Assembly: GCA_016186955.1 (NCBI GenBank)
Contig: JACPKP010000003.1
Coordinates: 66,290-130,289 of the forward strand
Length of the DNA: 64,000 nucleotides
Direction: 5' to 3'
Source: Candidatus Daviesbacteria bacterium
GTDB taxonomy: Bacteria; Patescibacteriota; Microgenomatia; Daviesbacterales; UBA10151
In this document: positions 2,849-64,000 of the stretch, piece after piece
Layout: every line of letters starts with the position of its first letter
How positions within the stretch are numbered: the stretch's first letter is position 1
Position numbers and translations under genes: made by a program
The notes under the pieces: model-generated
Seen by the model: only the letters and a program-made list of their open reading frames with translations
The model's database searches: none
Told to the model about the DNA's origin: nothing

Positions 2849-3582
2849 AGTTTTTTTTGTGCAATAGCAATTATAGATAAACCAAAATTCAAGGGAACCG
2901 TTTTATCTAGGAAATCTAAACATGGAACAAGCTTATTAATAAGCCAAGTTTGGTGTTGAGGAAGACCCTTTCTTTTTAAAAGTTTACTGTTAACAAACCA
3001 ACCCAAGGCGCCTAGCTTATTAATATAAAATATTTTTTTTATTTTAAAGTTTGTTTTGACTAATTTATTTGATATCTCTTTTTTGGAGTATCTTCTAAAA
3101 TGGCCCACCCTTTTATCATAAGATCCATATAAAAAATTATGTGCAGGAGCAAGCAGTATGAGAATACCCTTATCCTTCAGCAATTTAGAAATATTGATTA
3201 ATACTTTCATATCATCTCGGGTATGTTCGACAACATTTACAGCAACGATAGTCTGAAATTTTTTGTTTATTTTACATGGTTTAGTTATATCCAAAAATAA
3301 AGGCTGTTTTGAAAACTGTTTAAGTTTTTTGATATATTTTTTATTAATCTCAGAAGGAGTAACATTGAAACCGGTAGATATTAATATCGAGGTAATAGTG
3401 CCAATACCGCTTCCGATTTCCAAAACGTCATTTTTTATAAAGTTTTTAAACTTAGAAACAAGCCAAAGGTTGTAAGCATTAAGCCCTGAAAGTGTTTCTA
3501 ACGCTTGTATCTGCAAATCCATAAATTGATATTTATTTTTTGCTAATATATCATTTCCATCATCAATGCAAAAGAGGTTCAA
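2845..3582 (-). CDS. Class I SAM-dependent methyltransferase
   Basis: Motif I VLEIGSGIGTIT followed by an acidic residue after strand 2. Length 245 aa. Confidence 0.7.
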   Translation of the reverse strand: MNLFCIDDGNDILAKNKYQFMDLQIQALETLSGLNAYNLWLVSKFKNFIKNDVLEIGSGIGTITSILISTGFNVTPSEINKKYIKKLKQFSKQPLFLDITKPCKINKKFQTIVAVNVVEHTRDDMKVLINISKLLKDKGILILLAPAHNFLYGSYDKRVGHFRRYSKKEISNKLVKTNFKIKKIFYINKLGALGWFVNSKLLKRKGLPQHQTWLINKLVPCLDFLDKTVPLNFGLSIIAIAQKKL

Positions 3583-6965: not shown

Positions 6966-7003
6966 TTACTCAACTTCTACTGTGATATTCTCAGCTCATC
7001 GCT

Positions 7004-25649: not shown

Positions 25650-28571
25650 ATGATGCGTATAAAAGTTACCGCTTTCCTGAAATTTTCAATCAGCCTAATC
25701 CTGACAGGGTTTGCAGCTATACTGATTTTTTTTATGATCCGTCCGTTTTCCGGCTGGTATTTAAATTCTACCCCCGCAGTAGGGGTCGATTTATATAACA
25801 GCGCCACCTATGTTGCGTTCCATCTGAAACATTTTTCCTTGCCCTTGAATGGCTTTAAGGATATCTGGTTTGGAGGTTATCCTCTCGCTTTGGATTTTCC
25901 TCAGCTCTCATTTTTTCTGATGCTTCCTTTCGGAGCTTATTTCGGTCCCCATTTTGGGGTGCAAATATTTTCTATGGTTGTTTTATTTTTATTGCTTTTT
26001 TTCTGCTATCTTTTATATTTTCATCTTGCGAAAAACTTTGGGCTCGCCCTGTTTTTGACAGCCGCTGTTTTTTTGTCTGTCAACCTCTATGGTGATTTAA
26101 CATGGGCCGGGTCCATCCCGTACTTTACTTCGCAGTTATTTTTTCCCCTGGGTCTTTTGGCAGCAGTTTGTTATTTTGAAAAACCTGAACGGAGAAGAAT
26201 GGCAACATTAATTTTAGTCACGGGTTTAGGTATCCTTATTCATCCTCTTGGGGTTTTGGCATACCTGATTCCATCGGCTCTGATAATTATATTTCTGAAA
26301 GGGTTAATGCAACCCCATCCAATCAGCAAAATTTTGACACACAGTTCATTGTATATAGTAGGATTTCTGCTGGCCTCATTTATCTTTACCAGCGGTTATG
26401 TTGTGCCGATTTTGGTATCAATGCAGATCCCCAATATTGTGTCGGTTCCCCAGACGCCTGCTACCGAAACAACAGTTTCACCGGAAGCCGCGGCAGGCGC
26501 AAAAGCGATCGCCGATTTTTATAAAGGGCAAATTACTTCTTTATATACCCAGACAAATATCTGGATTTTTATATTGGTTGCAACAGGTGCAATCTTCTTC
26601 ATCTTAACTCTGCCAATTAGGGGAGATAAAAAAAGGTTGGGGTTGGCTTTGCCGCTTATTTTAATCACTATTTATGCTGCCGCCCATCCTGCGGTCAATC
26701 TGGCCGGGATTGTCAGCATATTCCGCCACGACCCATACAGGGCTTTCTGGCAGTTTCCGGTTGCAGTCGGAGCGCTGGCAGCCTATTTTTGGGGTTACGG
26801 GTTATCAGCGGTAGGTTTGAAATTGGCGCAGTTGAAAGTTTTAGGCAAGGTTACAAACTACCTTTTAATTTTTAGCACAACCTTAATTTTTGGTGTCATT
26901 GCTTTCGCAGTCTATATGGGCGAGGTGGAAAAAATGATTGCGCAAATCAGCGCACATTCCGAAGTGTCTTCTGCTTTTCCGGAGGCGTTAAATGATAATC
27001 TGCGTAAGGAAAATCTGGAAAAAATTACAAAATCTATAATCCCTTCATTCATAGACCCTCATGATAAAAATAAGAGGATGTACAGCGCCGATGCTACAAT
27101 TAATATCTGGTGGAACTCTTTTTTTGATATGCCTCTTGTTAGGGGTTATCTCGATCCTCCGATCGGTACCGATAGGAGGGGAGGCTTTTTTTGGTTGGAT
27201 ATAGCAATTGCTAACGATTCCCTGACCCGGGATTTTAAAATACCGGAAGACATAGCCTTAAATAATGCTAAGTTCCTGATGGATTGGTATGCGGTAAACT
27301 ATTTTGAGGGAGGCCGCCCAAGCAGCCGGGGTCCCAACCCCGGCCCGTCAAAGTACTTGCTCGATAATGCCATGCTTGACAAAGTGGAAGAGGTTACGGC
27401 TTCAGGAGCGCTACTAAGATGGATGACCGCCTCAGGTAAACCGGAGTGGCATCCGGAACTTACCCAAACTCTTAAGTACTTTAAAGTTGCGGATGAATAT
27501 GCCTCTCCCATATTGTCTCTTTCCGATGCCCCCTCAGTATTAGTTTTTAGTGATTGGCCGGGATATGAAGATTTTATGCGGGTTTTAGGGGCTTTTAATA
27601 TCAACTCTAAAAACCTGGTTCCTGTATACGGCGGAAAATACATTGACGATTTTGATCTTAAATCCTTAAACCGGTTCGAAGCGGTTTTTTTACACAATTA
27701 TGATTACCGTAACCGGAAAGTTTTTGATAAGTTTACAGATTATGTTAACCGGGGAGGAAAAATTTTTGTTGACACAGGGGGTGAAGTAAAAGATTCAAAA
27801 TCCGATAAATTGCCTGAGATTTTTCCTATGAAAGACTCTGTGAGTGGGGAGATGGGAAAGGAATGGGAGTTGGGCTTGTTTGAAAGCCCGTTTATAAAAG
27901 AGGTGGAACTTGATTCTTTCGGCCCGTTAATTTTCAATCAAAATCCTTGGAAAATTACAACACCCAAAAATAAGGATTTAAAGGCAGGTTCAACAGTTAT
28001 ATTAACCCATAAAGATAAACCAATCCTTGTTGAGAGGAAGATTGGGCAAGGTGATGTAGTCTGGTCCGGTTTTAATGCCATCTACCATTACAATCAATAC
28101 AGGAGCAGGTCAGAAGGCAAGCTGCTGCTGAACATAGTAGAAGAGTTGACCAGATTCAAGGACGTCCCATCTGTCATCCATACTTCTGTATCCTGGGTCA
28201 AACCGGAGAAAGTTATTGCCAGCGTGGACCAGAAAGCTGGAGGGATATTATTTAAAGAGCAGGGATATGAGGGGTGGCAGGCAAAGATTATCTCATCCGG
28301 CAAAGCGCTGCCTATTTTTAAGGCAGGACCAACTTTTCCGGGCTTTATGTATGTTCCTTTAGATGGTGTAGATTTCGGATCAAAGGTAGAATTTAACTTT
28401 GTCGGCGACTACCATAATTTTATATGGGCAGCGATAAACCTTATAACAGTACTGATACTTTTGGAAATGATTTTTTTTAAAGGTAAGTTAGTGGGAGACT
28501 GGCTTGGGTTGAGAGCTGGGAAATTCAGGAGCAAAGTATTTTCCTGGTGGGAAAAAGAGGAAGAAGTATGA
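25650..28571 (+). CDS. Large GT-C-like membrane protein (973 aa) with extracytoplasmic C-terminal domain and terminal TM anchor; tandem paralog of 28568..31411
   Basis: About 13 N-terminal TM helices, a C-terminal domain of roughly 500 aa, and a final TM helix (FIWAAINLITVLILLEMIFF). Collinear with the next gene, for example NIWWNSxxxMPLxRGYxDPP and DTGGEVK. Confidence 0.5.
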   Translation: MMRIKVTAFLKFSISLILTGFAAILIFFMIRPFSGWYLNSTPAVGVDLYNSATYVAFHLKHFSLPLNGFKDIWFGGYPLALDFPQLSFFLMLPFGAYFGPHFGVQIFSMVVLFLLLFFCYLLYFHLAKNFGLALFLTAAVFLSVNLYGDLTWAGSIPYFTSQLFFPLGLLAAVCYFEKPERRRMATLILVTGLGILIHPLGVLAYLIPSALIIIFLKGLMQPHPISKILTHSSLYIVGFLLASFIFTSGYVVPILVSMQIPNIVSVPQTPATETTVSPEAAAGAKAIADFYKGQITSLYTQTNIWIFILVATGAIFFILTLPIRGDKKRLGLALPLILITIYAAAHPAVNLAGIVSIFRHDPYRAFWQFPVAVGALAAYFWGYGLSAVGLKLAQLKVLGKVTNYLLIFSTTLIFGVIAFAVYMGEVEKMIAQISAHSEVSSAFPEALNDNLRKENLEKITKSIIPSFIDPHDKNKRMYSADATINIWWNSFFDMPLVRGYLDPPIGTDRRGGFFWLDIAIANDSLTRDFKIPEDIALNNAKFLMDWYAVNYFEGGRPSSRGPNPGPSKYLLDNAMLDKVEEVTASGALLRWMTASGKPEWHPELTQTLKYFKVADEYASPILSLSDAPSVLVFSDWPGYEDFMRVLGAFNINSKNLVPVYGGKYIDDFDLKSLNRFEAVFLHNYDYRNRKVFDKFTDYVNRGGKIFVDTGGEVKDSKSDKLPEIFPMKDSVSGEMGKEWELGLFESPFIKEVELDSFGPLIFNQNPWKITTPKNKDLKAGSTVILTHKDKPILVERKIGQGDVVWSGFNAIYHYNQYRSRSEGKLLLNIVEELTRFKDVPSVIHTSVSWVKPEKVIASVDQKAGGILFKEQGYEGWQAKIISSGKALPIFKAGPTFPGFMYVPLDGVDFGSKVEFNFVGDYHNFIWAAINLITVLILLEMIFFKGKLVGDWLGLRAGKFRSKVFSWWEKEEEV

Positions 28572-31411
28572 GAAAAACAGTAAAATTTTTGGTTGAGGTA
28601 ATTTTATTCCTATTGGCGGCCGGGATCATTGCAGCAACTTTCCTGCCAATAGCTAACTGGTATTTTAGTGCAACACCCCTTTGGGGTGTTGATTTTTACT
28701 ACACTGCTACAATTGTAAATTTGATTCAAGCAAACCTGACGATACCACCATTAGGATGGGGGTATGCGTGGTTTAGCGGGTGGCCGATAGTTTCTAATTA
28801 TCCTATTTTACATTATTACATCATACTCGCCTTCACACATTTCTTTGATCTTATTTCAGCAATAAAAATTTGGATGCTGACAAGCCTTTTTATCTATTTT
28901 TTAGGATGCTACATAGTTTTTTACCAGCTTTGTAAAAACTGGGCGGTTTCAACAGTTTTATCTATTGGAGGAATTTATTCTGTTGGAGTATACGGAACGC
29001 TGATGTGGGGGGGGAGTTTGCCCTCCCATGCAACCCAGGCTTTTTTCCCCTGGGTTTTGTTTTTACTGATTTGCTACCTTAAAAACAACCAGACGAAGTT
29101 TCTTCTTTTGGGGGCTCTTCTGACCGGCATCTCCATTTTGGCGCATCCCCAGATAGTCATTGCTTATATTTATCCCTCGTCCTTCATACTTTTTATAACC
29201 TGGTTTGGAAGAATAAAATTGATTAACCGGATAAAATCATATGTTTTCTATTTTATAGTGTCATTTATTGTTGGTTTACCCGGATTCTATGTCGTTTTTT
29301 TGAAGGCGTTGCAAAGTATAGTTAACATTCATGCCAATAAAATTGCTGCATCAACGGTTACTGTTTCGCAAAAAGCGGTAAATGAGATTGAAGCTTTCAG
29401 TAGGGCCCAGCCGCTGAGGATTTTTCATGATACCAATACCGCCGTCTTCATTTTGCTTGGCGCAGCTTTAGCATTTTTTCTATTGGGGTTGATTTTACGG
29501 GTTTCAAAACAACGGCTTCTTGATGTCTTACCTGTTGTTTTTTTGGCGGGTTGGTTAACCGCCTATATATGGATGTTCGCATATGGGATTTCTATCTATC
29601 ACGGAGGTTGGTACCGTCTTTTTTGGACAACACCCCTTTGGTTAGGTATGGTAGTTGCTGTTTTTTGGGGATATTTCCAGCATTCATTGAAAGACAGGCT
29701 AGTTGTTCATTGGCATTTTAAAGGGATGATTGTAATAGTGAGTTTTCTGATTCTTGGCGGAGGTTTATATCTGGTGCTTTATTTTTCATCAGGATTTAAG
29801 GAGAGAGTAATTGCTAGAAGTACGCCGTCTTCAGCTTTTCCTGATGTTTTGAACTTAAGGGTTGATCCAGATGGGAGAGAGCAGTTGAAAACCGAGCTTG
29901 TGCCCAATTGGCTTGACCCCCAGCGCACTGATTACAGGCTTTATGGTTCTGACCAGACTGTTAATATCTGGTGGAATTCCCTTTATAAGATGCCTCTTGC
30001 GCGTGGGTATTTTGATCCGCCAAGCTCCTCTGAATATACTTTTTGGCTGGATGCTGCATTAAGCCAAGATAGTTCAACCGGAGAAGACCAATTAGCAGGC
30101 TCTTTTAAGTATCCGAAAGAGATTGCTTTCAACAATTCACTATTTTTGGTTGACTGGTATGCTGTTAAATTCGCGGAAGCCGGGCATGCAAGTCCCACGG
30201 TGTATGCACCGTTACCCAAAAGCCTGACTGATAAAAATTTGCTTGTTAATGAGCAGGAATTAGAGTTTAATAAGGAAAAATATAATAAGTTGAACCTGGT
30301 TCTCCACTATTTTGAGTTTAAAGATGAGTTAGTATCACCGATCCTTACAGCTACAAATGCCCCGGTCTTGTGCATTTTTGGTTCCGACCAGGGTTTTGGA
30401 ACCATTATCAGAGGGCTTGCGGATCTTAACCTGTCTTCACAACAGGTCATACCTTTAAAATTTGGTAAGTATCTGGATAAAATTAGCTTAAGCGATTTAC
30501 GCTTATGTGACGCTGTCATAATTTACGATTATGATTATCAGGATAAAGCGAAAGCATTCAGGCAGATAAGCGACTATGTTAAAAAAGGAGGCAAGGTATT
30601 CATAGATACCGGCGGGGAGGTTAAACAGTCTGAGGATAAAGGTCCTCTGCCGGATTTTTTTCCCATTGATAAAACTTACAGAAAGCCGTTAGGCAGGACT
30701 TGGGAGTTTGAGGTCGCAGATGATCCTATAACAAGAGATGTTGACTTTTCTACTTTTGATCCGCCAATTTTTGATGGGTCAGAATGGAATCTGTCTTTTC
30801 CCCAACAACCTGACGATGTACGGCAAAATGCAGTAATTTTATTGAAGAATCACACGAAGCCCATATTGGTTTCAGAAAATATCGAAAATGGTTTTGTTTT
30901 TTGGAGCGGGATGAACCTGCCTTACCACATCATCCGTAACCATAATACAAACGAGTTGGTATTTTTTAAAAAAATTATTGAAAAATTGATCGGGTCTGAA
31001 AAACCTACACCACCTCAATCTACCGTAAAATTTATTTCAGCCGGTAAACGCGAGCTTTCTACCTCAGGCGCCAGGGGCGTTTTATTTAAAGAACAGGCTT
31101 ATGACGGATGGAATGCAGTATGGACGGAAAACGGTAGAAACAGGGATCTTAAAGTGTATAAAGCCGGACCGGCAGATCCTGGATTTATTTTTGTGCGCCT
31201 TCCTGCCGGGTCCGGTACGGGAAAGCTCATCTTTTCCTATAACGGTTCAGGTAATACCTGGTTGGTTACGCTTTTATCAGTAACACTTTTTATATTAATT
31301 TTGGATGAGGTAATTTTTGGGGAAAAACTGTTGGGGGGAGCAAGACGTTGGATTTGGAGGAAATTCCACCACCGTTTAACCGGTTGGTGGGGTAGGGAAG
31401 ATGAAATTTAG
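28568..31411 (+). CDS. Large GT-C-like membrane protein (about 947 aa); paralog of 25650..28571 (ORF track start 28547; ATGA overlap favours 28568)
   Basis: Same architecture and conserved blocks as the upstream gene. C-terminal TM helix WLVTLLSVTLFILILDEVIF. Confidence 0.5.
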   Translation: MRKTVKFLVEVILFLLAAGIIAATFLPIANWYFSATPLWGVDFYYTATIVNLIQANLTIPPLGWGYAWFSGWPIVSNYPILHYYIILAFTHFFDLISAIKIWMLTSLFIYFLGCYIVFYQLCKNWAVSTVLSIGGIYSVGVYGTLMWGGSLPSHATQAFFPWVLFLLICYLKNNQTKFLLLGALLTGISILAHPQIVIAYIYPSSFILFITWFGRIKLINRIKSYVFYFIVSFIVGLPGFYVVFLKALQSIVNIHANKIAASTVTVSQKAVNEIEAFSRAQPLRIFHDTNTAVFILLGAALAFFLLGLILRVSKQRLLDVLPVVFLAGWLTAYIWMFAYGISIYHGGWYRLFWTTPLWLGMVVAVFWGYFQHSLKDRLVVHWHFKGMIVIVSFLILGGGLYLVLYFSSGFKERVIARSTPSSAFPDVLNLRVDPDGREQLKTELVPNWLDPQRTDYRLYGSDQTVNIWWNSLYKMPLARGYFDPPSSSEYTFWLDAALSQDSSTGEDQLAGSFKYPKEIAFNNSLFLVDWYAVKFAEAGHASPTVYAPLPKSLTDKNLLVNEQELEFNKEKYNKLNLVLHYFEFKDELVSPILTATNAPVLCIFGSDQGFGTIIRGLADLNLSSQQVIPLKFGKYLDKISLSDLRLCDAVIIYDYDYQDKAKAFRQISDYVKKGGKVFIDTGGEVKQSEDKGPLPDFFPIDKTYRKPLGRTWEFEVADDPITRDVDFSTFDPPIFDGSEWNLSFPQQPDDVRQNAVILLKNHTKPILVSENIENGFVFWSGMNLPYHIIRNHNTNELVFFKKIIEKLIGSEKPTPPQSTVKFISAGKRELSTSGARGVLFKEQAYDGWNAVWTENGRNRDLKVYKAGPADPGFIFVRLPAGSGTGKLIFSYNGSGNTWLVTLLSVTLFILILDEVIFGEKLLGGARRWIWRKFHHRLTGWWGREDEI

Positions 31412-53958: not shown

Positions 53959-54031
53959 GGGCCGTTAGCTCATTTGGTAGAGCGTCTGGCTGGCAGTCAG
54001 AAGGTGACCGGTTCAAGCCCGGTACGGTCCA
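53959..54031 (+). tRNA. tRNA-Ala (anticodon GGC)
   Basis: Manual cloverleaf: acceptor GGGCCGT/ACGGTCC with G3:U70, D-arm GCTC-ATTTGGTA-GAGC, anticodon stem TCTGG/TCAGA with loop CTGGCAG, T-arm ACCGG-TTCAAGC-CCGGT, discriminator A. CCA is not encoded. Confidence 0.8.
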
Positions 54032-54053
54032 CTTAAAAATATATAATTAAATT

Positions 54054-54584
54054 ATGGCAGAAACTGATATTACAACCAAAAATCAGGCCTTGCAGCCCCA
54101 AGCTGCAACTTCTGGAGGGGTGAAGGCAGCAAAAAATGGTGTGGAGGAAAGGGTTATCCGCATCCAGGTTATAGGAGGCGTGGCAAACGGTGATTACCCC
54201 TCATCTGATTTTCAGACTGCTAAAAGAACGTGGGAGGCTTTTGTAGAAGCAGGCATTGAGCCCCAATTTTTAGTTGCTAATGGGCTGCATGAGGGGCACA
54301 ATTACCAGGTTTCAGAAGTTTCTACCAGGCAGTTGCTCAAAAAAGGAGGAGTAATCAACTTGATAGGGGAATCAAGGGCTACTGAGGAAGCTTTGCTGGC
54401 ATATAATTATACTAAGTCACAGGCTCAAGCTGACAATAATTTAATCAGTGGTACAGATAAAAAGACTGCTTTAGTTAAGGTAAGCCAGGAACTGGGTAAG
54501 TTTGATGAAGCAGGAGAAATCGTAGAGGCAACTGTGATATTGCCTGAAAAACAGCAGAAAATTGCTGAGCCTAACTCAAACTAA
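54054..54584 (+). CDS. Hypothetical soluble protein (176 aa) flanked by two tRNA-Ala genes
   Basis: Intact ORF with no TM helix or signal peptide. No recognisable domain. Confidence 0.5.
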   Translation: MAETDITTKNQALQPQAATSGGVKAAKNGVEERVIRIQVIGGVANGDYPSSDFQTAKRTWEAFVEAGIEPQFLVANGLHEGHNYQVSEVSTRQLLKKGGVINLIGESRATEEALLAYNYTKSQAQADNNLISGTDKKTALVKVSQELGKFDEAGEIVEATVILPEKQQKIAEPNSN

Positions 54585-54586
54585 TC

Positions 54587-54657
54587 GGGCTTGTAGGCAA
54601 GTGGTATACCGGTACATTCGCATTGTACAGTCCCGGGTTCGATTCCCGGCAAGTCCA
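54587..54657 (+). tRNA. tRNA-Ala (anticodon CGC), with a somewhat irregular D-arm
   Basis: Acceptor GGGCTTG/CAAGTCC with G3:U70. Anticodon stem GTACA/TGTAC with loop TTCGCAT. T-arm CCGGG-TTCGATT-CCCGG. Discriminator A. The D-stem has one mismatch. Confidence 0.6.
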
Positions 54658-54671
54658 CACAATATGAACAT

Positions 54672-54944
54672 TTACAATTTGTAGATATCATGACTGCCAA
54701 TTTTATGAAATAAAACCTTTCCTTGCCCCATAAATTCAAATATAATCCTATCTTTATAATTTATAGAAAATGCCCATAAACCTTCTAATTGACCAGTAAG
54801 TTTATGGGTTTTTGACGTAGGGGAAAATGGATCCTTTTTAAATAATTTCTCTGCCTTGATAGCCTGTTTCTGTATCTTTGGGGTGAGTTTTTTAAATTGT
54901 TTGACAAAATTACTTGAGTACTCTATTTGAGTAATAGCCATCAA
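54672..54944 (-). CDS. Type II toxin, RelE/ParE family
   Basis: KLTGQLEGLWAFSINYKDRIIFEF...VLFHKIGSHDIY, typical of the RelE/StbE family. 90 aa. 4-nt overlap with the upstream antitoxin. Confidence 0.7.
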   Translation of the reverse strand: MMAITQIEYSSNFVKQFKKLTPKIQKQAIKAEKLFKKDPFSPTSKTHKLTGQLEGLWAFSINYKDRIIFEFMGQGKVLFHKIGSHDIYKL

Positions 54945-55252
54945 ATTAAATCAGAGAGTGAGCCTGTTTTGATAGTTTTGTCTTCTTTATACTCTTTTCT
55001 GCCTTCCTCTACCACCCGGAGTGTATCCGCCACTTCCGCCTCGTAGGCAATTCTTCTCAGATTCTCTAAAGCCTTATAATCAATTATTGCCACATCTGGT
55101 TTATTGTTGGATAGCACAACCACAGGCTCCTTAGTTTTTTTGACCCTATCAAAAACCTTACGGTAGTTTTTTTGTATATCAGATACAGAGACTGTATTAG
55201 GCATCAATGTAATCATAATATGTATAATATTACATAAAATTTTATATGTCAA
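54941..55252 (-). CDS. Type II antitoxin, Phd/YefM family (start probably an internal Met)
   Basis: VSVSDIQKNYRKVFDRVKKTKEPVVVLSNNKPDVAIIDYKALENL. Confidence 0.65.
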   Translation of the reverse strand: MTYKILCNIIHIMITLMPNTVSVSDIQKNYRKVFDRVKKTKEPVVVLSNNKPDVAIIDYKALENLRRIAYEAEVADTLRVVEEGRKEYKEDKTIKTGSLSDLI

Positions 55253-57546
55253 GGGGTTGGTGAAGGAGAGGGAGTATTTTTAGGTGATGGTTTAGGGCTA
55301 ACTTTGACAGCTTCAGGTGTAGCGATATTTTCCGGTTGTGGCAGGTTCAGAACTTTTGGCAGCTGTTTTTTTTGGAGGGCGCCTTTTTCTTCCTGGGGGA
55401 TATTCTGCTTAGCGCTGCCGGTTGCAGTTTTATTGCCCTCAGATTTAATATCAGATAGCAGTTTGCTGGCTGTATCATAGTCTTTATCTTTGGGGTTTAA
55501 TAAAGATATTAATGCTTTCACGGTAAGCTCGGCGCCTGCAAAATCCCCCTTATCTTTCTGGGTTGCTGCAAGGCGGTAATAAGCAATGGTAAGATCCGGT
55601 TTTAAATTGATAGCATCAGTGAAAAACCTGATAGCCAGGTCATAATTTTTGATAGAACGGTGGATTTCCCCAACGCTAAACCTTAGCAGCGGGTTTAACG
55701 GGTCTCTTAATATTGCTTGCCCGTATGAATCCAGCGCAAAACTGAGGGCGTTTTGCGCCACACCGGTGATTTGCCGGTATATTGAACCCAATATTTCATA
55801 ATTGGTGCTGTTTCTCGGGCTTAAAAATATGGCATTTCTCGCCTCACTGATTGATTGTGATAAAAGCTGGCTGATGTCCTGTTTATCCTGGTCTGTCAGG
55901 GAGCCGGTGGGGGAGGCCTCGCTCGGGCCTTTGGCGGCTGCAATCCCGTTAGCCAAGGCAAAATCAACCTGGGCGAGGTTAATCCTGTACAGGTCAATTT
56001 GGGAGTTTAATTGTTTGGCTTGTTGCAGCCGGTAGTAGGTGTCAGGGCCTTTTTTATAAATTGAATCCAGCGCCAGCCGGTGCTGGTAGTCGGCAAGCGC
56101 CACCCGGTATATATTACTGGCGGCTGCTGCCACAAAAATAAATACTACTATTAGCAGGGTAATTGGCAAAACATCACCGGCTATCAGGTTTTGCATTGCC
56201 TGGGGATCCAGCCTGGATGCCTTGATACCCAAATGCCATTCTTCCGCCTTGCCGGCCATTTTATGCATTGCCACCAGCATCGCCCATATAGTAAGTGTTA
56301 CCACCATAGTTGTTGGAGTAGAAACATGCATGGCAAGCAGTATCAGGGCAGCAATAGCGCTAATGGAAAGGGACGCCGCAGCCAGGTTATTCTCAGGCTG
56401 CATCAGCCCCCTGGCCCCTAGCTTAAATACTGTAAATGACAGGTATAAAAAGGCCAGAAAACCTGTGATTCCTAGTGTCCCTAAAATCTGTAGGTATTCA
56501 TTAAAAGCGCTGTCAAAGCGTAAATTCCAGAATTTGGTCATGTTAAATTCAATTGGTTTATTTTTGGTGAAGTTAAACAGGTAAGTACCAGGGCCTGTGC
56601 CTAAAAATGGGGCATCACGGAAAGCGGAAGCGGATATCTGCCAGGAGATAGCCAGCGGCAGTTGGATCTCCTTTGGAAAATCCAGCCGTTTTTGGAAAAA
56701 GGGGTTAGCGGGTTGGCCTGTTTTGATAAAACCCAAAATTAAAATCAGCGCTGCAATACAAAATGGGATGGCGGCATAGATAACACTACGTTTAATACGT
56801 TCCAGTTTAGCTGTAAAAAATGTCAACCCTAAAACTGCCAAAGCAGCCGTACCTGTTGCCATGTCTCCAATCAAAGCTATGGCGGCTGCAAACAAACCGG
56901 ATAATATAATAGCTAAATACAGCGGTATAAAATTATTCGGGTTGGCTATTGAAAGCAATGTTACCGGCAGCATCAACACCAGCAGTGTTGATGCGGAAAA
57001 AGAGGATCCTGTAGGGGTAAAATTGACAGTTTGCGCAAAGGGAAGGGGAATATACCAGTTGAAATAAGATACAATACTAACAGCGGCTACCAATACTGCA
57101 GAAGAGAGTAGACTATAGTATAAAGCTTTAACCTGGGTTCTGGATTTGATATTGGATACAAGGATAAAATAGAACAGTATGTAAGTGATAAAGCTGACTA
57201 TTGAACCATGGACCCTGGGTAAATTGCCAAAGATTGCCACTGGCTTTGAATCTGTAAAAACAGTGGACAACACCAACACTGCAAGCAGTAACACAAGGGG
57301 TAGGTCAAGAGGGGTTTTGGTCACTACCACCTTGCCCTCTAAAACCCACTTCAGCGACCACAGCAAAAGTAAAAGCAGGACAGTTACTGATAAAAAAATA
57401 AGTTTGGGGATGTCAAAAAATTCTGTCGTAAGGGGGACAAAAATAAGCGGGGTGATAAAAATTACCAACACCATCAAAACTGTCATCAATTTACTTACCC
57501 ATGTTAATAAAGCTTGTTTCATAATCTTAAAATTTGATCTTTCCAA
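55249..57546 (-). CDS. Wzy_C / O-antigen-ligase-like membrane protein with C-terminal TPR repeats (PglL/WaaL-type candidate oligosaccharyltransferase)
   Basis: About 12 TM helices. Wzy_C-like loop motif FRDAPFLGTGPGTY...SAFNEYLQILGTLGITG. C-terminal TPR (AYYRLAATQKDKGDFAGA...) and a PKPSPKNTPSPSPTP tail. Confidence 0.5.
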   Translation of the reverse strand: MERSNFKIMKQALLTWVSKLMTVLMVLVIFITPLIFVPLTTEFFDIPKLIFLSVTVLLLLLLWSLKWVLEGKVVVTKTPLDLPLVLLLAVLVLSTVFTDSKPVAIFGNLPRVHGSIVSFITYILFYFILVSNIKSRTQVKALYYSLLSSAVLVAAVSIVSYFNWYIPLPFAQTVNFTPTGSSFSASTLLVLMLPVTLLSIANPNNFIPLYLAIILSGLFAAAIALIGDMATGTAALAVLGLTFFTAKLERIKRSVIYAAIPFCIAALILILGFIKTGQPANPFFQKRLDFPKEIQLPLAISWQISASAFRDAPFLGTGPGTYLFNFTKNKPIEFNMTKFWNLRFDSAFNEYLQILGTLGITGFLAFLYLSFTVFKLGARGLMQPENNLAAASLSISAIAALILLAMHVSTPTTMVVTLTIWAMLVAMHKMAGKAEEWHLGIKASRLDPQAMQNLIAGDVLPITLLIVVFIFVAAAASNIYRVALADYQHRLALDSIYKKGPDTYYRLQQAKQLNSQIDLYRINLAQVDFALANGIAAAKGPSEASPTGSLTDQDKQDISQLLSQSISEARNAIFLSPRNSTNYEILGSIYRQITGVAQNALSFALDSYGQAILRDPLNPLLRFSVGEIHRSIKNYDLAIRFFTDAINLKPDLTIAYYRLAATQKDKGDFAGAELTVKALISLLNPKDKDYDTASKLLSDIKSEGNKTATGSAKQNIPQEEKGALQKKQLPKVLNLPQPENIATPEAVKVSPKPSPKNTPSPSPTP

Positions 57547-57591: not shown

Positions 57592-60500
57592 TTATGGCGC
57601 TCCTGTTACCGGGCCATATCTAGCTGCGCCACCATCATTATATAAAGCCTTAATTTGGGTGGCAGTTAGGGCATAGTTATAGATCCTGGCATCATCAATC
57701 TGGCCGTTTAAAGGTTGTTGGTTGGATTGAGAGTTGCCTAACTTGGCATTCACATTAGGACTAGTATTGGCAACAGCAGACTCTGCTTGGCTTAAAGAAC
57801 CTTCCTGGACACCATTAACATATATATAATGAACATCAGCATCACTATCAAATACCGCTGCCATATGATACCAGGTTCCCGTAGCGGCAGTTGTACTGGT
57901 GGCGCAAACATTTCTTCTGGAGGAACCAGAAGTGCCTGTCCTGAAGCTAAAGGCGAAATGGTTTGCTGTACAAACAGTACCAAGGTTATCCATCCAGACC
58001 TGAGCTCTGATGAAGCTTGCAACATCTGCCACTGGTTCATAGTAAAGTGAAGAATTCCCTAAAGCGGTAATATTCATCCAGCCGCTGATAGTATATTGGC
58101 TCAAACCTTTAACACTAAAAGAGCCCAAATCCACATAATCATCATTTCCATCAAAGTTAAGGGAATAATTCCTCTTACCTGAATTACTGCCTGATGCACC
58201 ACCCCAGGCAGATGTTGATGTTGAACATGTGCCAACTGTAGTTGTTCCACCAGAACCGAGGGTGATTGTACCTGGATAGCTGTTACCTGAGGAATCATTA
58301 ATAGTTGTCCCCTGGCACTCATCCATCTTCCAGTGGGCAACAGGAGCCCCCCTGTTATAATCCCAGGCAATTTGGGCCGGAGTCCTGGCATAAGTAAATT
58401 CTTTTAACCCATCAATAGTCCCATCAAAAGTACTACCACTAGTAATATCATAAGTTGCCACAGCTATAAAAGCCGGATTAGTATTGGCAATTGTGCCTAC
58501 AGCTGTAGTGTCTGTATCTTCCAGCTTGCCATTAACGTATAGTTTGTGCGAGTCATTCACACTATCATAAACACCAACGATATGATACCAACTGTCTCCA
58601 GCAGCTACAGTTGTAGAACAAAGGGTAGCATCAACCCCGTTATTAGCAGTATCAAAAACAAAGGAAAAATTCCCGGCACTACACCGCAGTCCACCATCAA
58701 TTTGAAGTCCTATTCTAGGCGCACTTCCCCCTGCATTCTGTTCCTCATAAATTTCTCTATCGCCTGATCCAGGTATAGTGTTGGGTTTTACCCATGCTTC
58801 AATTGTTACAGCGGTCTGGTTTTTTACTGTAGCGGTGGTTGGTACATTTACATACGTTGTATTACCATTAAACTTTAAAGCCCCACCAATTTTACCTACC
58901 ACTACCGTTGGGGTATTAGTTATAGTTCCAGCGTAACCGTTGCCTGAAGTATCGTAAGCACTTCCTGAATTAGCTTTTTCTTCAAAATCATACCTTAAAA
59001 GTGGTTCTGCACAGGAAGTAGAATCCCCAGGCACACAATATTCCTGGTTTGCAGCCTGGACCTGATAAGAAGAATTATCAGACAAAGCCCCTAAAACCTG
59101 GGATGAGCTTCTATTCATGTCCAGTTTTACCTGCTCTGCAGTTAAAGCCTGGTTATAAACTTTAGGCTCATCTATTGTCCCTGCAAATAAATTAGACCCT
59201 GCATTTTCTGCGCCAATATCCAAAATAGTAGTAGGGTTTTGCAGGGTAGTGGGGATAGAAGTGGTGTTACTGGCATCTTGTACTCCATTAATATATAGTT
59301 TGACAGAATTTGCGCTGGAAAATACTCCGGCTACATGATACCAGGTGCTAGCCGAGAGTTTAGTTGTCCCGGTTGTCGTGATAATAGAAGGTCCTGTAGA
59401 ATTCACAACTGACATATTCAAATAGACACCTCCTATGCCGGTATCAATATACAAACAATATGCAGAGGTAGCAGCAGTGCCTGTGTATTTACAGATAATG
59501 TCATGGGTAGAGGAGGTATCAGCTAAATTAACCCAGGCTGATAAAGTCAGATCACCGGTAATTTTTAAAGCAGCCACATCAGATGGCATAGCCACATAAT
59601 CATTTGTCCCATCAAAGATCAATGCTTTACCAAACTTGCCTGAATTAGTCCAGCCAGAGGTGGAAGTAGCAGGCACTGCCATGCCAGACTGAGCTCCATC
59701 TAGAGCAGATCCTTGGGATCCTGAATTACAGGCATCATTTGTCCCTCCAGAGCAGGTATTATCTGCTCCCTGCTCAAACTTCCAATGCCCCAAAGGCGTC
59801 CCCACAGGGGAACCTGGCGCAGGGTGCCCGGCATTCATGTCTTCTATAATTTGAGCAGAAGTCCGGACATAATTATAAATTTTAACTTCATCAATCTTTC
59901 CATTAAAGAAAGAGGAACCAACTAGACTACCTATTCGGAAACTATTCAATACAGTGTTAAAAGCAGTAAAACTTGTATTTTGGCCAACCAACACACCATT
60001 TAAATAAAGTTGAATAGTTGTTGAGCCATTAAAGACTCCTGCCAGATGGTACCAGGTTTTAGTAGAAACCGTATTGGTAACATCAAAGTCATTATTCCAA
60101 CCAAAGTATCTTATTTTTTGGGTCCCGGCATCATTTACCAACTGTAACCCATTAGCACCATTATCTGTTCCTTCTGTACCATAACGAAAAATGGTCGCTT
60201 GAACATTGTTACTTGGTAGAGAGTTAGCATAAAACCAAGCCTCAATTGTTCTTGGTTTAGAACCGCTTGGAAATGTAGAATCTGATCCGGCAATAAATGC
60301 AGAACTCCCGTCAAAACTTCCTGCTTTGCCATATTTACCAATAGTTACAGTTGCCGAAGTGCTTGTTCCGTTTATTCCATTCCCTGATGAATCCTTAACT
60401 TCTCCTGAAGTTCCATTCCAGCTTGGTTCCTCCATCTTCCAATACCCCACTGGCCCTGGAGCAAAGTTATACAGCTGGGAGACTTCAGCAGGAGAGATGG

Positions 60501-62946
60501 CTCGATTATAGACTCTTACTTCATCTACTCTGCCTTGAAAATTAAATCCACCACTGGTCGAGCCAATTCTCAAGGCGTTGGTATCATTAACTACAGAGGT
60601 AGTAGTTGAGGAGGATTCTTCTAATACTCCATTAACAAAAATTCTGACCTCCTTACCATCATATGTCCCAACTACATGGGCCCATGTACTTGTCGAAATT
60701 GCTGTTGTACCAGTGGCGGTTACCCAAGCTGATCCTGTACTGACTTCAAAAATTGGAAAATTATTTGCGCTTCTAAAGCCTAATTCATAACTTGAATTAG
60801 CATTTGTTGAGCCGTCACCTTTATTAATAGCCATTTCAGCTGTTACAGTTCGTCCTCTATAAAGCCAAGCAGCCACGGTTACTCTGGAAGGGGTTAAGCC
60901 ATCATTATCATCAATATTGACATAGTCATTTGTACCATCAAAGTCACCAGCATTGCCAAATTTTCCAGTAAGTGGGTCATTGGCATCTGCATTTGGGCAT
61001 GATTCACCATTATTACTATTTCCTGATGCATCAGTTACTTCCTCTGTTGTACAATCACTAGTCCAGGAACTCTCATCCATCTTCCAATATCCCACCAGCC
61101 CATTAGAGAGATTGCTTCGCGGATCGCTCGCAATGACGGTTGAGGCTCCTTCATTATTCCCCCTGGCGTTAAAATCAGCTAACACCTGTGTAGCCGAGCG
61201 GGCATAAGGGTAAACCTTAACCTCATCTATAAACCCCAGCCATTCATTGGACGTGCCATCCCGGTCTACACCGACATAAAAAATATTGGTATTAGCTAAA
61301 GTTGCAGTTGTTGGGTCTGTTTGGCTGTCTTTTTGAATGCCGTCCACATACACATAAACTTTATCATCGGTATTGCTTCGTACCCCGGAAACAAAATGCC
61401 ACTTGTCATCATCAAAGTTGGCATTGGCAGAGCAGGTAGAGATATCGGGGCCCCAGGATGAATCATCATCGATGCCAAAACACAAATCCCCATCTGCGTC
61501 CATCCATAGTTTATACCCGCCTGTTGTCGTATCGGCTTTACTCATAATGTAATTAATAGCGCTGGAGGCGCCGTTCCTTTTCACCCAGGTAGAAACAGTA
61601 AAGTTGTCGGTTGCAGCAAAATCCAGTTTTGCATCATCTGCTTTTGATACATTCATATTGGCAGTACCGGAAAAGTAATAACATTTTCCGCTAATGCACA
61701 TATCTTCAGTCTGCCAGGTAGGATTGTTGTTTAAAGTTCCATCTAAATTGTTAGTAGTTGAATCCTGGATAACACTACTTATTGCAGGGTCATCAAATTT
61801 CCAGTATAAGGTAGGGGAGGGGGCTTTAGCTTCAGAACCAAGTGAGCCTACTGAATAGTTGGAAGCCTGGGATTGGGAAAAAGCCCCGACATCTTTGGAA
61901 GACACAGCAGGGTTGCCATAATATACATAATAAGTGGATTTTAAATCCGGGAATGAGGTAAGAAGAAAATCAACAGTTGTGTTAGAAAGGTTACAGGCAT
62001 TAGTCCTGCCAATATAGTAAGGTAGGTTCTTTCCTCCCTGGTCAGTAATCCTGATATCCTGGCAGGATGATTGTAATTTCCCTGCAGTAATTAAAGTTGC
62101 AGTATCAAGGCTAAAAGAGATAAAAACATTGGATTGGGCAGAGCCGTTGGTAGAGGTAACAGGCACTTCCTGCCTGTACGCCCAATCATCATTGAACCAG
62201 ACAGCTTGTGTAGATTTAGTCCAAGGACCAAACAGATACAACAGCCCTGATCCTGACAGGGCAAAGAATATAATAAGGTAGGTAGTTAGGGTTTTTTTGG
62301 TAAGTTTAATAAAGCCTTTTTGCCAAGCTTTTCCTCTTTGCTCAAGGCGTTTTTTAAGTAAATTTTCATTAAATCCACCCTCTTTGGTGTGTTTTTCTTT
62401 TAAAGATTGAATTAATTTATCTATTAAAAAATTGGCTTGCTGGATTAAGGTAATTAGTAAATTAACAGCCCGGGTGGAATCTGAGGGAAGAGAGGGGAAA
62501 TTAGGTTGAGAAGGGAGATAGGGATTATTTTTAATTATCTCCCAAATTACCCCTATTTCCCTTATCTCCCTTTTCGCCCTTTCTTTATCCCAAATTTCTA
62601 TTTTATTTTGCCTGGCATAAGATAAGTAGTCATTTAGAAGCTCCTCTAAGGAGCCTCTGGAAACTCCTGAAAGCTTAATATAACCTGCTAAGCTTTGCTG
62701 TTTGTAGCCCTCCGGAATATTTTGCATACCACTCCTTGCTGCTTGCTCCATCTGATCAACTGTTCTTGACTTATAAGGGATGTATTTTTTAACAAATTCC
62801 ATTGTAAGGTCATAAATAGGTACAGTTAGCTTATATGCTAAGAGATATTCATAGCCTGCTTTTTTCTTTTGATTCTGCTTTTGGTTTATTTCCATATCTT
62901 CCATATTTCCCTTATCTCCCTTATGGTGCTCCAGTGCTTGGTCCAT
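57592..62946 (-). CDS. Giant surface protein (1784 aa): N-terminal four-helix-bundle (Avd/TIGR02436-like) domain, one TM helix, then at least 7 tandem LamG/concanavalin-A-like lectin domains
   Basis: N-terminus MEQAARSGMQNIPEGY...SRGSLEELLNDYLSYA matches the four-helix-bundle protein family. TM helix TYLIIFFALSGSGLLYLF. Repeated modules end in D(E/D)V(K/R)(V/I)YNxAL(S/T)xxQ(V/I). Rich in G/S/T/N. Confidence 0.7.
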   Translation of the reverse strand: MDQALEHHKGDKGNMEDMEINQKQNQKKKAGYEYLLAYKLTVPIYDLTMEFVKKYIPYKSRTVDQMEQAARSGMQNIPEGYKQQSLAGYIKLSGVSRGSLEELLNDYLSYARQNKIEIWDKERAKREIREIGVIWEIIKNNPYLPSQPNFPSLPSDSTRAVNLLITLIQQANFLIDKLIQSLKEKHTKEGGFNENLLKKRLEQRGKAWQKGFIKLTKKTLTTYLIIFFALSGSGLLYLFGPWTKSTQAVWFNDDWAYRQEVPVTSTNGSAQSNVFISFSLDTATLITAGKLQSSCQDIRITDQGGKNLPYYIGRTNACNLSNTTVDFLLTSFPDLKSTYYVYYGNPAVSSKDVGAFSQSQASNYSVGSLGSEAKAPSPTLYWKFDDPAISSVIQDSTTNNLDGTLNNNPTWQTEDMCISGKCYYFSGTANMNVSKADDAKLDFAATDNFTVSTWVKRNGASSAINYIMSKADTTTGGYKLWMDADGDLCFGIDDDSSWGPDISTCSANANFDDDKWHFVSGVRSNTDDKVYVYVDGIQKDSQTDPTTATLANTNIFYVGVDRDGTSNEWLGFIDEVKVYPYARSATQVLADFNARGNNEGASTVIASDPRSNLSNGLVGYWKMDESSWTSDCTTEEVTDASGNSNNGESCPNADANDPLTGKFGNAGDFDGTNDYVNIDDNDGLTPSRVTVAAWLYRGRTVTAEMAINKGDGSTNANSSYELGFRSANNFPIFEVSTGSAWVTATGTTAISTSTWAHVVGTYDGKEVRIFVNGVLEESSSTTTSVVNDTNALRIGSTSGGFNFQGRVDEVRVYNRAISPAEVSQLYNFAPGPVGYWKMEEPSWNGTSGEVKDSSGNGINGTSTSATVTIGKYGKAGSFDGSSAFIAGSDSTFPSGSKPRTIEAWFYANSLPSNNVQATIFRYGTEGTDNGANGLQLVNDAGTQKIRYFGWNNDFDVTNTVSTKTWYHLAGVFNGSTTIQLYLNGVLVGQNTSFTAFNTVLNSFRIGSLVGSSFFNGKIDEVKIYNYVRTSAQIIEDMNAGHPAPGSPVGTPLGHWKFEQGADNTCSGGTNDACNSGSQGSALDGAQSGMAVPATSTSGWTNSGKFGKALIFDGTNDYVAMPSDVAALKITGDLTLSAWVNLADTSSTHDIICKYTGTAATSAYCLYIDTGIGGVYLNMSVVNSTGPSIITTTGTTKLSASTWYHVAGVFSSANSVKLYINGVQDASNTTSIPTTLQNPTTILDIGAENAGSNLFAGTIDEPKVYNQALTAEQVKLDMNRSSSQVLGALSDNSSYQVQAANQEYCVPGDSTSCAEPLLRYDFEEKANSGSAYDTSGNGYAGTITNTPTVVVGKIGGALKFNGNTTYVNVPTTATVKNQTAVTIEAWVKPNTIPGSGDREIYEEQNAGGSAPRIGLQIDGGLRCSAGNFSFVFDTANNGVDATLCSTTVAAGDSWYHIVGVYDSVNDSHKLYVNGKLEDTDTTAVGTIANTNPAFIAVATYDITSGSTFDGTIDGLKEFTYARTPAQIAWDYNRGAPVAHWKMDECQGTTINDSSGNSYPGTITLGSGGTTTVGTCSTSTSAWGGASGSNSGKRNYSLNFDGNDDYVDLGSFSVKGLSQYTISGWMNITALGNSSLYYEPVADVASFIRAQVWMDNLGTVCTANHFAFSFRTGTSGSSRRNVCATSTTAATGTWYHMAAVFDSDADVHYIYVNGVQEGSLSQAESAVANTSPNVNAKLGNSQSNQQPLNGQIDDARIYNYALTATQIKALYNDGGAARYGPVTGAP

Positions 62947-64000
62947 AGTTTATTGCCCCATTACTATAAAGTGTTTTTACCTGGGTAGAACTTAAAGCAT
63001 AATTAAATAATTTTATCTCATCCATTTGCCCCAGATACCTGCCAGCTCCGCCTGAGGTTTCCCCCATATAAAGAATGGAGGAGGCAGCAGTTACATTATT
63101 AGTTTCAGAGCTCTGTTTAATTAACTGCCCATTTAAATAGGTATTAATATTTGTCCCGTCATATGTACACAAAACATGATTCCACGAACTGAGCGTTAAA
63201 GTCGAAGTTGGTGCAGAGGAGTTGTGGAAGGCTGCGGAGTAATAGACCCCGCAAATTGGCATGGAACTGCTATCTGTAGTCAGCTGAAACTCACTGGATT
63301 TCTCAAGTAATGTTTTAGATGCAACTGAAGTTGTAGGATAAAACCAGCCTCCCCAGGAAAATTTAGTGGTAGTGGCAGCTGCAGCAGCCAGAGGTGAGAA
63401 AGCGCTAGTTGTCACAAAATCATCAGTGCCATCAAAATTTAGGGAGTAATTTATCTTGCCAGTCCTGCCATTATACCAGGCAGTGGCAGTATCCACCACC
63501 GCGCAGGCTCCAGCACTAGTTTGGGTTCCAGAGGCTCCAATAGTAATAGTCCCTGTATTGGAATTTCCTGATAAATCATTAACACTTGCTCCATTACACT
63601 CATCCATATCCCAGTAAGCCATAGGAGCCCCCCTGTCCATATCCCACTTGATCTGGGCAGGGGTTCTGGCGTAGCTGTAAATCCTAAAATCGTCATATGT
63701 CCCCTTAAATTCTGTGGTGGCATTGGCCCAGGCGCCTATTGAAATACCGTTTGGTGCGGTATCCTCAACAGCAGATACTGATTGGGACAAAGAAGCATCT
63801 AGTGTGCCATTTAAATATATCTTATGGATATCAGATACACTGTCAAAAACCGCAGCCACATGATACCACCTGTTAGTTGATAAAGCAGTTTGACTGCACA
63901 CATCATACCTGGTTGAAGTACTATCTCCTGTCCTGAAATGAAAACTGAATGCGGCAGAGCCGGCATTGCAATTACTAAAATTATATCCAGTTGTTAAAAA
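62921..64000 (-). CDS. LamG/concanavalin-like repeat protein; N-terminus lies beyond the window end (frame open to 64000)
   Basis: Same repeat modules (DDFRIYSYARTPAQIKWDMDRGAP, DEIKLFNYALSSTQVKTLY). C-terminus ...NYGPSTGAP is similar to the giant protein's C-terminus. No stop occurs between 63901 and 64000 in frame. Confidence 0.65.
   Translation of the reverse strand, partial: FLTTGYNFSNCNAGSAAFSFHFRTGDSTSTRYDVCSQTALSTNRWYHVAAVFDSVSDIHKIYLNGTLDASLSQSVSAVEDTAPNGISIGAWANATTEFKGTYDDFRIYSYARTPAQIKWDMDRGAPMAYWDMDECNGASVNDLSGNSNTGTITIGASGTQTSAGACAVVDTATAWYNGRTGKINYSLNFDGTDDFVTTSAFSPLAAAAATTTKFSWGGWFYPTTSVASKTLLEKSSEFQLTTDSSSMPICGVYYSAAFHNSSAPTSTLTLSSWNHVLCTYDGTNINTYLNGQLIKQSSETNNVTAASSILYMGETSGGAGRYLGQMDEIKLFNYALSSTQVKTLYSNGAINYGPSTGAP

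Follow-up and report, generated by a model that had tools for sequence, protein, structure and literature searches.

The 64,000-nucleotide (nt) stretch of Candidatus Daviesbacteria DNA analyzed here (contig JACPKP010000003.1; hereafter the window) carries on its minus strand, at 57592..62946, a single open reading frame (ORF) in which a four-helix-bundle (4HB) domain with a C-terminal suffix is fused to a hydrophobic segment and a giant LamG-repeat ectodomain (Table 1). Its 1784 codons are uninterrupted, with no stop codon before residue 1784 and thus none between the suffix domain and the hydrophobic segment, and a scan of the junction sequence found no in-frame ATG, GTG, or TTG between these two elements either. 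A preliminary description of this DNA had claimed such a continuous frame and singled out 62350-62950 as the place to look for a frameshift; in the sequence as given, the frame is indeed open throughout this interval.

The fused reading frame and its domains

Translation of the fusion likely starts at ATG 62904 (M15), which would give a product of 1770 residues, because homologues of its N-terminal domain begin there and because a start at M1 would overlap the upstream gene that ends at 62921; residue numbers are nonetheless counted from M1 throughout. This ATG (MEDMEINQ...) is preceded by the purine-rich, Shine-Dalgarno-like motif GGGAGATAAGGGAAAT and lies 17 nt past the stop codon of an upstream LamG gene, a paralogue with the same C-terminal motif as the LamG part of the fusion (...YGPSTGAP* and ...YGPVTGAP, respectively), just as the preliminary description had put it. 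The region before the start codon also belongs to an exact 17-nt direct repeat on the minus strand, GGGAGATAAGGGAAATA, of which the first copy (62904-62920) is the Shine-Dalgarno-like region itself and the second (62554-62570), 350 nt downstream, encodes the conserved residues REIREIG. Purine-rich motifs resembling (A/T)AGGGRA are found upstream of 4HB-suffix genes in relatives as well, with near-matches (one to two mismatches) at the internal site. It is unlikely that this repeat arose by chance, and partial duplication, gene conversion, or autoregulation are possible explanations.

The N-terminal part of the ORF is a full-length member of the family annotated as "23S rRNA intervening-sequence protein" (PF05635, or TIGR02436 plus TIGR04258) with the same helices, in agreement with the family assignment proposed before. 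Residues 36-132 match the hidden Markov models of PF05635 with 34.8 bits (cut-off 33.8; 39.7 bits for the isolated N-terminus) and of TIGR02436 with 33.7 bits (cut-off 24; 40.9 bits when isolated), residues 160-204 match positions 4-48 of the 49 positions of the TIGR04258 4helix_suffix profile with 43.1 bits (cut-off 40), and a profile built from 120 homologues aligns end to end with residues 16-208 at 356 bits. An AlphaFold2 model based on a 37-sequence alignment (pLDDT 78) is all-helical with helices at 18-41, 47-68, 72-99, and 143-175 (model numbering). It has the fold of a four-helix bundle, and its top PDB matches in Foldseek are PF05635 structures, namely 2GSC (target TM 0.80-0.82, probability 1.0) and 2RLD (TM 0.66-0.69), of which the former was also found by a PDB sequence search with the 4HB part. 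The domain differs from the 23S rRNA intervening-sequence proteins in that it is not encoded inside such a sequence; a scan of the window with Rfam found two tRNA genes only and no rRNA. A defense-system or phage origin of the 4HB part was rejected given the absence of any match to it in PADLOC and PHROG.

A search with residues 15-360 found 933 proteins, and among the 120 best of these, to which our figures on homologue length and architecture refer, all but one are standalone proteins of 190-237 amino acids (aa) with PF05635 as their only domain. The statement of the preliminary description that such proteins normally stand alone is therefore well borne out, and the window departs from the family norm in that its 4HB-suffix domain is joined in frame to a predicted signal peptide and an ectodomain of 1,536 residues instead of forming a free protein of ~195 aa. 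These proteins come from Microgenomates-type bacteria of the Candidate Phyla Radiation (CPR) such as Levybacteria, Gottesmanbacteria, and Daviesbacteria. Standalone proteins are 85-91% identical to the N-terminal 194 residues that make up the 4HB-suffix part in the window, with 85-89% for those of 190-195 aa, and stop 3-8 residues past the motif KKRLEYR (residue 204 in the window ORF).

The segment L220-W242 is the sole hydrophobic segment of the product, with a mean Kyte-Doolittle value above 1.6 nowhere else in its 1784 residues. Together with the preceding KGFIKLTKKT and the following STQA|VW, it has the layout of a predicted signal peptide that is located after 210 residues and not at the N-terminus. 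The same pattern of a long, K/R-rich n-region, a hydrophobic core, and a site of the type AxA|(A/V)WF(D/N)DxW is common to eight orthologues or paralogues of the LamG part, as illustrated by NAEA|AWFDDNW, KVEA|AWVDDDW, SASA|AWMDENW, QASA|AWFDDNW, and QASA|VWFDDNY compared to STQA|VWFNDDW in the window. A type IV prepilin signal was considered and rejected because KG|FIKLT lacks the glutamate at +5 and because lysines precede the hydrophobic stretch.

Behind this segment, the ectodomain comprises a DUF2341 domain and repeats of Laminin_G_3 (PF13385; 514.8 bits in six stretches, above the cut-off) that start at residues 381, 620, 835, 1054, 1318, and 1538. The earlier count of at least seven LamG domains thus has to be corrected to six plus DUF2341. 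This layout is the same as in other DUF2341 and Laminin_G_3 giant surface proteins of CPR bacteria, including the LamG proteins at the related loci L007 (LamG1 and LamG2) and L010, and the window protein shares with them the AWF(D/N)DxW motif at the presumed mature N-terminus and the C-terminal ...YGPxTGAP. Unlike the window protein, these giants start with their own methionine and signal peptide. Resemblance to the haloarchaeal TafC fimbrial protein (NF052521) is weak, and membership in this family was rejected given a score of 194.9 bits against a cut-off of 410, with the likeness being due to the LamG repeats.

Table 1. Features of the fused reading frame and its immediate surroundings (positions in the window).
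Feature	Position	Strand	Remarks
Upstream paralogous LamG gene, 3' part	62921..64000	-	start beyond the window; ends ...YGPSTGAP*
Upstream in-frame extension M1-N14	62905..62946	-	probably untranslated; overlaps end of upstream LamG gene
Complete 4HB plus suffix domain, residues 15-208	62323..62904	-	PF05635, TIGR02436, TIGR04258, and full-length profile
PF05635/TIGR02436 core, residues 36-132	62551..62841	-	HMM matches
TIGR04258 suffix, residues 160-204	62335..62469	-	includes fourth bundle helix and the KEGGFNENLLKKRLE helix
Alternative-frame ATG within suffix codons F-N-E	62367..62369	-	preceded by GAGGGTGGA; LamG start if the run had six adenines (A6)
Run of five adenines (A5) at the join (GGCAAAAAGGC)	62317..62321	-	with A6, the 4HB gene would have 199 aa and LamG would be a gene of its own
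Join and lysine-rich n-region QKGFIKLTKKT	62290..62322	-	homologous to ...QQGFIKLTKKT of L007 LamG1
Latent TAA	62306..62308	-	stop codon of the 4HB gene if the run were A6
Hydrophobic segment, residues 220-242	62221..62289	-	signal-peptide h-region or membrane anchor
Predicted signal peptidase I site STQA248/V249WFNDDW	62200..62205	-	conserved orthologue pattern; presumed cleavage
DUF2341, residues 295-352	61891..62064	-	Pfam match; N-terminal part of ectodomain
Six Laminin_G_3 repeats, residues 381-1784	57595..61806	-	end in conserved GQIDDARIYNYALT...YGPVTGAP
Wzy_C (O-antigen-ligase-like) and TPR membrane protein	55249..57546	-	downstream; syntenic with L007, L001, and L020

Separate genes in relatives and the join in the window

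Three assemblies (loci L007, L008, and L009) share the same gene order of a giant protein, a 120-aa 4HB protein, LamG1 (1747 aa), a 4HB-suffix protein (213 aa), LamG2 (~1757 aa), and a Wzy_C/TPR protein. The order in the window (LamG, fusion, Wzy_C/TPR, and then a LysM/M23 peptidase) matches that of L007, where the 4HB-suffix gene ends with TGA and is separated from the ATG of LamG2 by a spacer of 87 nt. Judging from these gene orders, the fusion is not the ancestral architecture, since relatives keep two genes, and no counterpart of the window's 4HB-suffix::LamG fusion was found in the databases searched.

The N-terminus of the LamG part in the window is of the LamG1 type, being 72.6% identical to L007 LamG1 (residues 21-211) over 197 residues that include QQGFIKLTKKTL and ...QQGFIKLTKKTLATYL. 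In L007 LamG1, this stretch is read from the gene's own ATG ~25 codons upstream, and the same ...GFIKLTKK is encoded with an ATT inside the coding region, so that the ATT at 62310-62308 of the window is normal and not a degraded start codon. We dropped an explanation in which, compared to L007 LamG2, the join would have arisen by deletion of 71 nt and mutation of ATG to ATT, because LamG1, the closer paralogue, has the same ATT. This ATT, behind AAAAAGG, would also be the only candidate for an independent LamG start in frame, which we rejected because initiation there seems unlikely.

At the join, where the residues read ...LEQRGKAWQKGFIK..., a single base makes the difference between one gene and two. 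As sequenced, with five adenines at 62317-62321, the alternative-frame ATG at 62369-62367 opens an ORF of 27 codons only (MKIYLKNALSKEEKLGKKALLNLPKKP). With six adenines instead, the 4HB ORF ends ...RLEQRGKAWQKRLY at 199 aa, a length typical of the family, and the LamG ORF reads MKIYLKNALSKEEKLGKKGFIKLTKKTLTTYLIIFF... from ATG 62369 with a K-rich n-region of 26 residues that resembles those of the orthologues. A frameshift separating a small 4HB gene from the LamG gene, raised by the preliminary description as the case against a fusion, would thus take one extra adenine, and the given sequence is unbroken. Seen in one assembly, this one-base difference could stem from a genuine deletion of recent date, from phase variation of the tract, or from an error in the assembly.

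As the best explanation of this locus, we favor a secondary merger of two neighboring, co-directional genes that is real and tolerated, and we give this reading about an even chance. The first gene would encode a strongly conserved cytoplasmic 4HB-suffix protein of ~195 aa of the kind that lies behind giant surface-protein genes in this Microgenomates clade, and the second a secreted surface protein with DUF2341 and six LamG repeats. If, as we infer, five adenines are the true DNA sequence, a one-base length change in the A-run, right at the overlap of the two genes, would be the simplest cause of the merger, as the 4HB stop codon would be lost, the LamG ATG would be out of frame, and ribosomes starting at ATG 62904 would read into the LamG signal peptide. 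With the join lying in the positively charged n-region, the predicted topology would place the 4HB domain in the cytoplasm and the LamG ectodomain outside, with one membrane pass between them. Signal peptidase I, if it cuts at STQA|VWFNDDW, would set free a normal ectodomain, while the 4HB domain would stay behind on the cytoplasmic side. Such cleavage would separate the two parts again, so that the merger would cost little and be tolerated, making it close to neutral.

Several points weigh against this reading. Cleavage is presumed for a predicted signal peptide that lies behind a folded domain of 210 residues, and the fused 4HB domain bears no sign of relaxed selection, since all 53 columns that are invariant across 37 aligned sequences are kept in it, which implies that the merger is very recent or that the domain is still needed. 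Five adenines have been read in one assembly; the 34-mer spanning the junction was not found in the JGI metagenome collection, and neither was the exact fusion protein in a gene-position index. The support drawn from the neat resolution of the locus into two genes by six adenines is weakened as well, since GAGGGTGGA and the alternative-frame ATG behind it are by-products of the conserved KEGGFNE codons, and L007 has the same alternative-frame ATG with a stop after four codons. The neat solution could therefore be partly coincidental, with a rough joint chance of ~10%.

In a possible, if somewhat unlikely, alternative, the fusion is not the normal state of the locus. The true or predominant sequence would then have six adenines, with the indel stemming from sequencing or assembly or from slipped-strand phase variation, and the locus would hold two overlapping genes, one for a 199-aa 4HB-suffix protein ending at TAA 62308-62306 and one for a LamG protein starting at ATG 62369. 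In its favor, one added adenine restores both a normal 4HB gene with its stop codon and a LamG ORF with ATG, Shine-Dalgarno-like motif, and n-region; moreover, all close homologues are standalone, and the junction is known from a single assembly without a trace in the JGI collection. Phase variation of surface-protein genes is classically switched by homopolymer tracts at their 5' end, and in the window, too, a short poly-A tract near the 5' end sets the reading frame of the gene body. In contrast to such switches, the tract comprises only five adenines, and the "off" frame would be rescued by translation from the upstream gene instead of yielding a truncated product. A run of this length is short for slippage or for an Illumina error, and the long, unbroken frames of the other large ORFs in the window give no sign of a frameshift-prone assembly. 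Further evidence against this alternative is that real in-frame fusions of the 4HB-suffix family are seen elsewhere in independent assemblies and that conserved 4HB codons account for the alternative ATG and the Shine-Dalgarno-like motif before it. In a rarer variant, LamG would be translated from its own ATG by a programmed -1 ribosomal frameshift at C_AAA_AAG, but the single hairpin (62262-62244) is located ~50 nt past the slippery site, a distance too great for it to promote the shift. For the window itself, this calls for caution, and the locus should be annotated as two genes or as one fusion only after a check of the reads.

Conservation, neighborhood, and recurrent fusions of the 4HB-suffix family

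Between the window and L007, the 4HB part is 72% identical, compared to 49% for the Wzy/TPR protein and 39% for the LamG neighbor. Despite ~85% amino-acid identity, only ~54% of the codons at conserved residues are identical, and this divergence of synonymous sites indicates that the family is under strong purifying selection. The same codon figure rules out recent horizontal spread as the reason for the 85-91% identity to standalone proteins.

In eight of ten distinct loci (the window, L001, L003, L007, L010, L015, L017, and L019), the 4HB-suffix gene immediately follows a giant surface-protein gene on the same strand; in the remaining two, it is found inside a glycosyltransferase operon (L013) or beside ORFs on the opposite strand (L018). 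In six of the ten loci, it directly precedes a gene for an exported or membrane protein. At L003 and L010, small NYN and GIY-YIG genes are inserted between the LamG and 4HB-suffix genes, and each insertion comes with a second copy of the ~116 nt at the 3' end of LamG (L003 6651-6766 versus 7355-7470, 88% identical; L010 6133-6252 versus 6854-6973, 67% identical), so that the 4HB-suffix gene is still preceded by a ...FGPSxGxP* remnant. This looks as if selfish genes had been inserted that bring along or duplicate the 3' end of their target.

Two further loci merit mention for their gene content. L019 belongs to a metagenome-assembled genome labelled Gammaproteobacteria and has a truncated 80-aa 4HB-suffix gene (5911-6153) between a gene for a 1914-aa protein and a DUF2341/LamG gene; since this arrangement is of the CPR type, the contig may be mis-binned. 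In a Levybacteria genome, a tandem array of three four-helix-bundle genes (for proteins of 123, 114, and 190 aa, the last of the suffix type; L015 4266-5640 or L016 4238-5612) is flanked by one gene encoding a giant protein and another encoding a secreted protein of ~800 aa.

The window is not the only place where this domain is found in front of an export signal. Of the 150 top-ranking representatives of clusters formed at 50% identity, 111 have a complete suffix and 25 carry a C-terminal extension of at least 35 residues. All five representatives with an extension of at least 150 aa have an export signal or membrane helix directly after the suffix: a prepilin motif in P0204 (KGFTLMEIL) and P0264 (QGFTLLEVV), a Sec signal peptide with AYA|DD at its end and a WxLIP_PGBD domain behind it in P0140, and a membrane helix in P0131 and P0149. 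The shorter extension of P0155 likewise begins with a membrane helix. Another prepilin fusion, P0060 (KNQLGFTFIEL; L001 2343-3563), is present in two assemblies without an alternative start, and its locus is syntenic with the window in the order of fusion, TPR protein, and LysM/M23 peptidase. P0204, P0264, and P0060 are colinear in alignment at 41-53% identity, and in all three, the short pilin leader is replaced by a 4HB-suffix domain of ~190 residues just before G|FTxxE; if they were processed by prepilin peptidase, their leaders would be exceptionally long. Most orthologues of the P0060-type pilin are unfused proteins of 220-245 aa with ordinary leaders. In P0308, the middle of the 4HB domain has been deleted, and P0307 retains merely a remnant of the suffix, showing that a fused 4HB domain can decay.

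Like the window ORF, the proteins P0060, P0204, P0264, P0308, P0140, P0131, and P0149 are fused after ...KKRxEYR to the N-terminal export signal of the downstream product, though their partners are type IV pilin-like, WxLIP_PGBD wall, or small anchored proteins and not a giant LamG protein. Fusions of this kind seem to arise repeatedly, to persist, and sometimes to decay, which is consistent with a tolerated merger whose extra domain is cut off by a peptidase.

The same observations have to be weighed for a different and, in our view, unlikely explanation, namely that the fusion in the window has been selected for its function. The hydrophobic segment would then be an uncleaved anchor and the 4HB domain the cytoplasmic tail of a giant LamG surface protein, where it might couple this protein to a cytoplasmic partner or nucleic acid or serve as a built-in biogenesis factor; the conserved neighborhood and the recurrent fusions would be "Rosetta-stone" evidence that links 4HB-suffix proteins to exported proteins. 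The positions behind giant surface-protein genes (8/10 loci) and before exported or membrane protein genes (6/10) support this idea, as do the far stronger conservation of the 4HB part than of its Wzy and LamG neighbors under purifying selection, the fact that all large fusions are to exported proteins, the colinearity of the 4HB-pilin fusions at only 41-53% identity, and the intact state of the fused domain in the window. Against it, fused forms are a small minority, with most pilin-partner orthologues unfused, and the 4HB domain decays in P0307 and P0308. Other family members have cytoplasmic neighbors (GT4, MerR-like, and GIY-YIG proteins), and the conserved AxA site argues for cleavage.

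Fusions to a zinc ribbon likewise point to a role in connection with nucleic acid and not to one at the membrane. Six representatives from other lineages (P0179, P0183, P0193, P0200, P0225, and P0229) share a C-terminal zinc ribbon with a common cysteine pattern, and the three that were scanned (P0193, P0225, and P0229) score above the Pfam cut-off for Zn_ribbon_Top1 (PF01396), the topoisomerase type. Because of these fusions in other members of the family, it may be suggested that 4HB-suffix proteins bind or act on nucleic acid. The literature that we searched contains no functional study of PF05635, TIGR02436, or TIGR04258 proteins outside diversity-generating retroelements (DGRs).

A broader and similarly improbable proposal is that, in CPR bacteria, 4HB-suffix proteins are cytoplasmic partners dedicated to the export of pilins and giant adhesin-like proteins or otherwise to these exported proteins, in which case the fusions would be Rosetta-stone evidence and not accidents. 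The 4HB-suffix proteins might function as a pro-domain or chaperone that signal peptidase or prepilin peptidase detaches, or as Avd-like RNA-binding factors required for the expression of very long surface-protein genes. The PF05635/4HB-suffix family is very large, and we consider its conservation, its position behind giant surface-protein genes, and its recurrent fusion to export signals a more interesting result than the fate of the single join in the window. If the linkage is functional, it would offer a first handle on the role of Avd-like proteins outside DGRs and would imply prepilins and secreted proteins with leaders of ~200 residues.

Diversity-generating retroelements and the remainder of the window

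CPR genomes carry DGRs, and the order of a surface-protein gene followed by an Avd-family gene resembles the target-avd part of a DGR cassette, as the preliminary description had remarked. The 4HB domain of PF05635 and Avd belong to the same broad four-helix-bundle superfamily according to CDD and previous work, and PF05635 is the family that accompanies DGRs most frequently (PMC10053308). Like Avd of Bordetella phage BPP-1 (bAvd, PDB 4DWL), the 4HB domain in the window is encoded just after the 3' end of a surface-protein gene, and an Avd-family gene adjoining the 3' end of a potential target is also found at L003, L007, and L010; this feature alone does not define a DGR. The gene order noted in the preliminary description is thus real, and indeed conserved in eight of ten loci, but its interpretation as a DGR fails.

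No ORF of at least 150 aa in the 64 kb has a reverse-transcriptase domain by Pfam (no RVT match), and a self-BLAST of the window revealed no repeat pair with adenine-biased mismatches, in line with the earlier remark that neither reverse transcriptase nor template repeat is visible. Within the 7-10 kb covered by the gene tables of related loci, no reverse transcriptase is listed. In the window, the DNA of the two LamG 3' regions shows ~64% identity with an even spread of mismatches, and the LamG 3' duplicates at L003 and L010 differ mainly by transitions and not at adenines. Neither a direct sequence match in the PDB nor a Foldseek match connects the 4HB part to Avd, and its partner is a LamG protein instead of a target with C-type lectin fold. 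We therefore reject a DGR in the window, given the absence of a reverse transcriptase among ORFs of at least 150 aa and of adenine-biased repeats, and consider it highly improbable that the 4HB domain is an Avd with the LamG C-terminus as variable region and both reverse transcriptase and template repeat outside the window.

The window from 1 to 50600 is nearly entirely an envelope-glycosylation island with several PMT_2/TMEM260-like membrane proteins of the protein O-mannosyltransferase type that have TPR tails, many GT2 and GT4 glycosyltransferases, methyltransferases, epimerases, and a flippase; Rho and the LysM/M23 peptidase are encoded in the window as well. Five large ORFs (3566-5005, 10657-12381, 16964-18319, 18583-20700, and 28547-31411) have no family match. 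Two tRNA-Ala genes (anticodons GGC and CGC) at 53959-54658 on the plus strand flank an ORF of 176 aa (54054-54584) without a match in Pfam, PADLOC, or PHROG. Immediately downstream of the Wzy/TPR gene, an ORF for a Phd/YefM-type antitoxin (54941-55252, minus strand) is followed by a 90-aa ORF without family match (54672-54944), and this pair at 54672-55252 is probably a toxin-antitoxin system.

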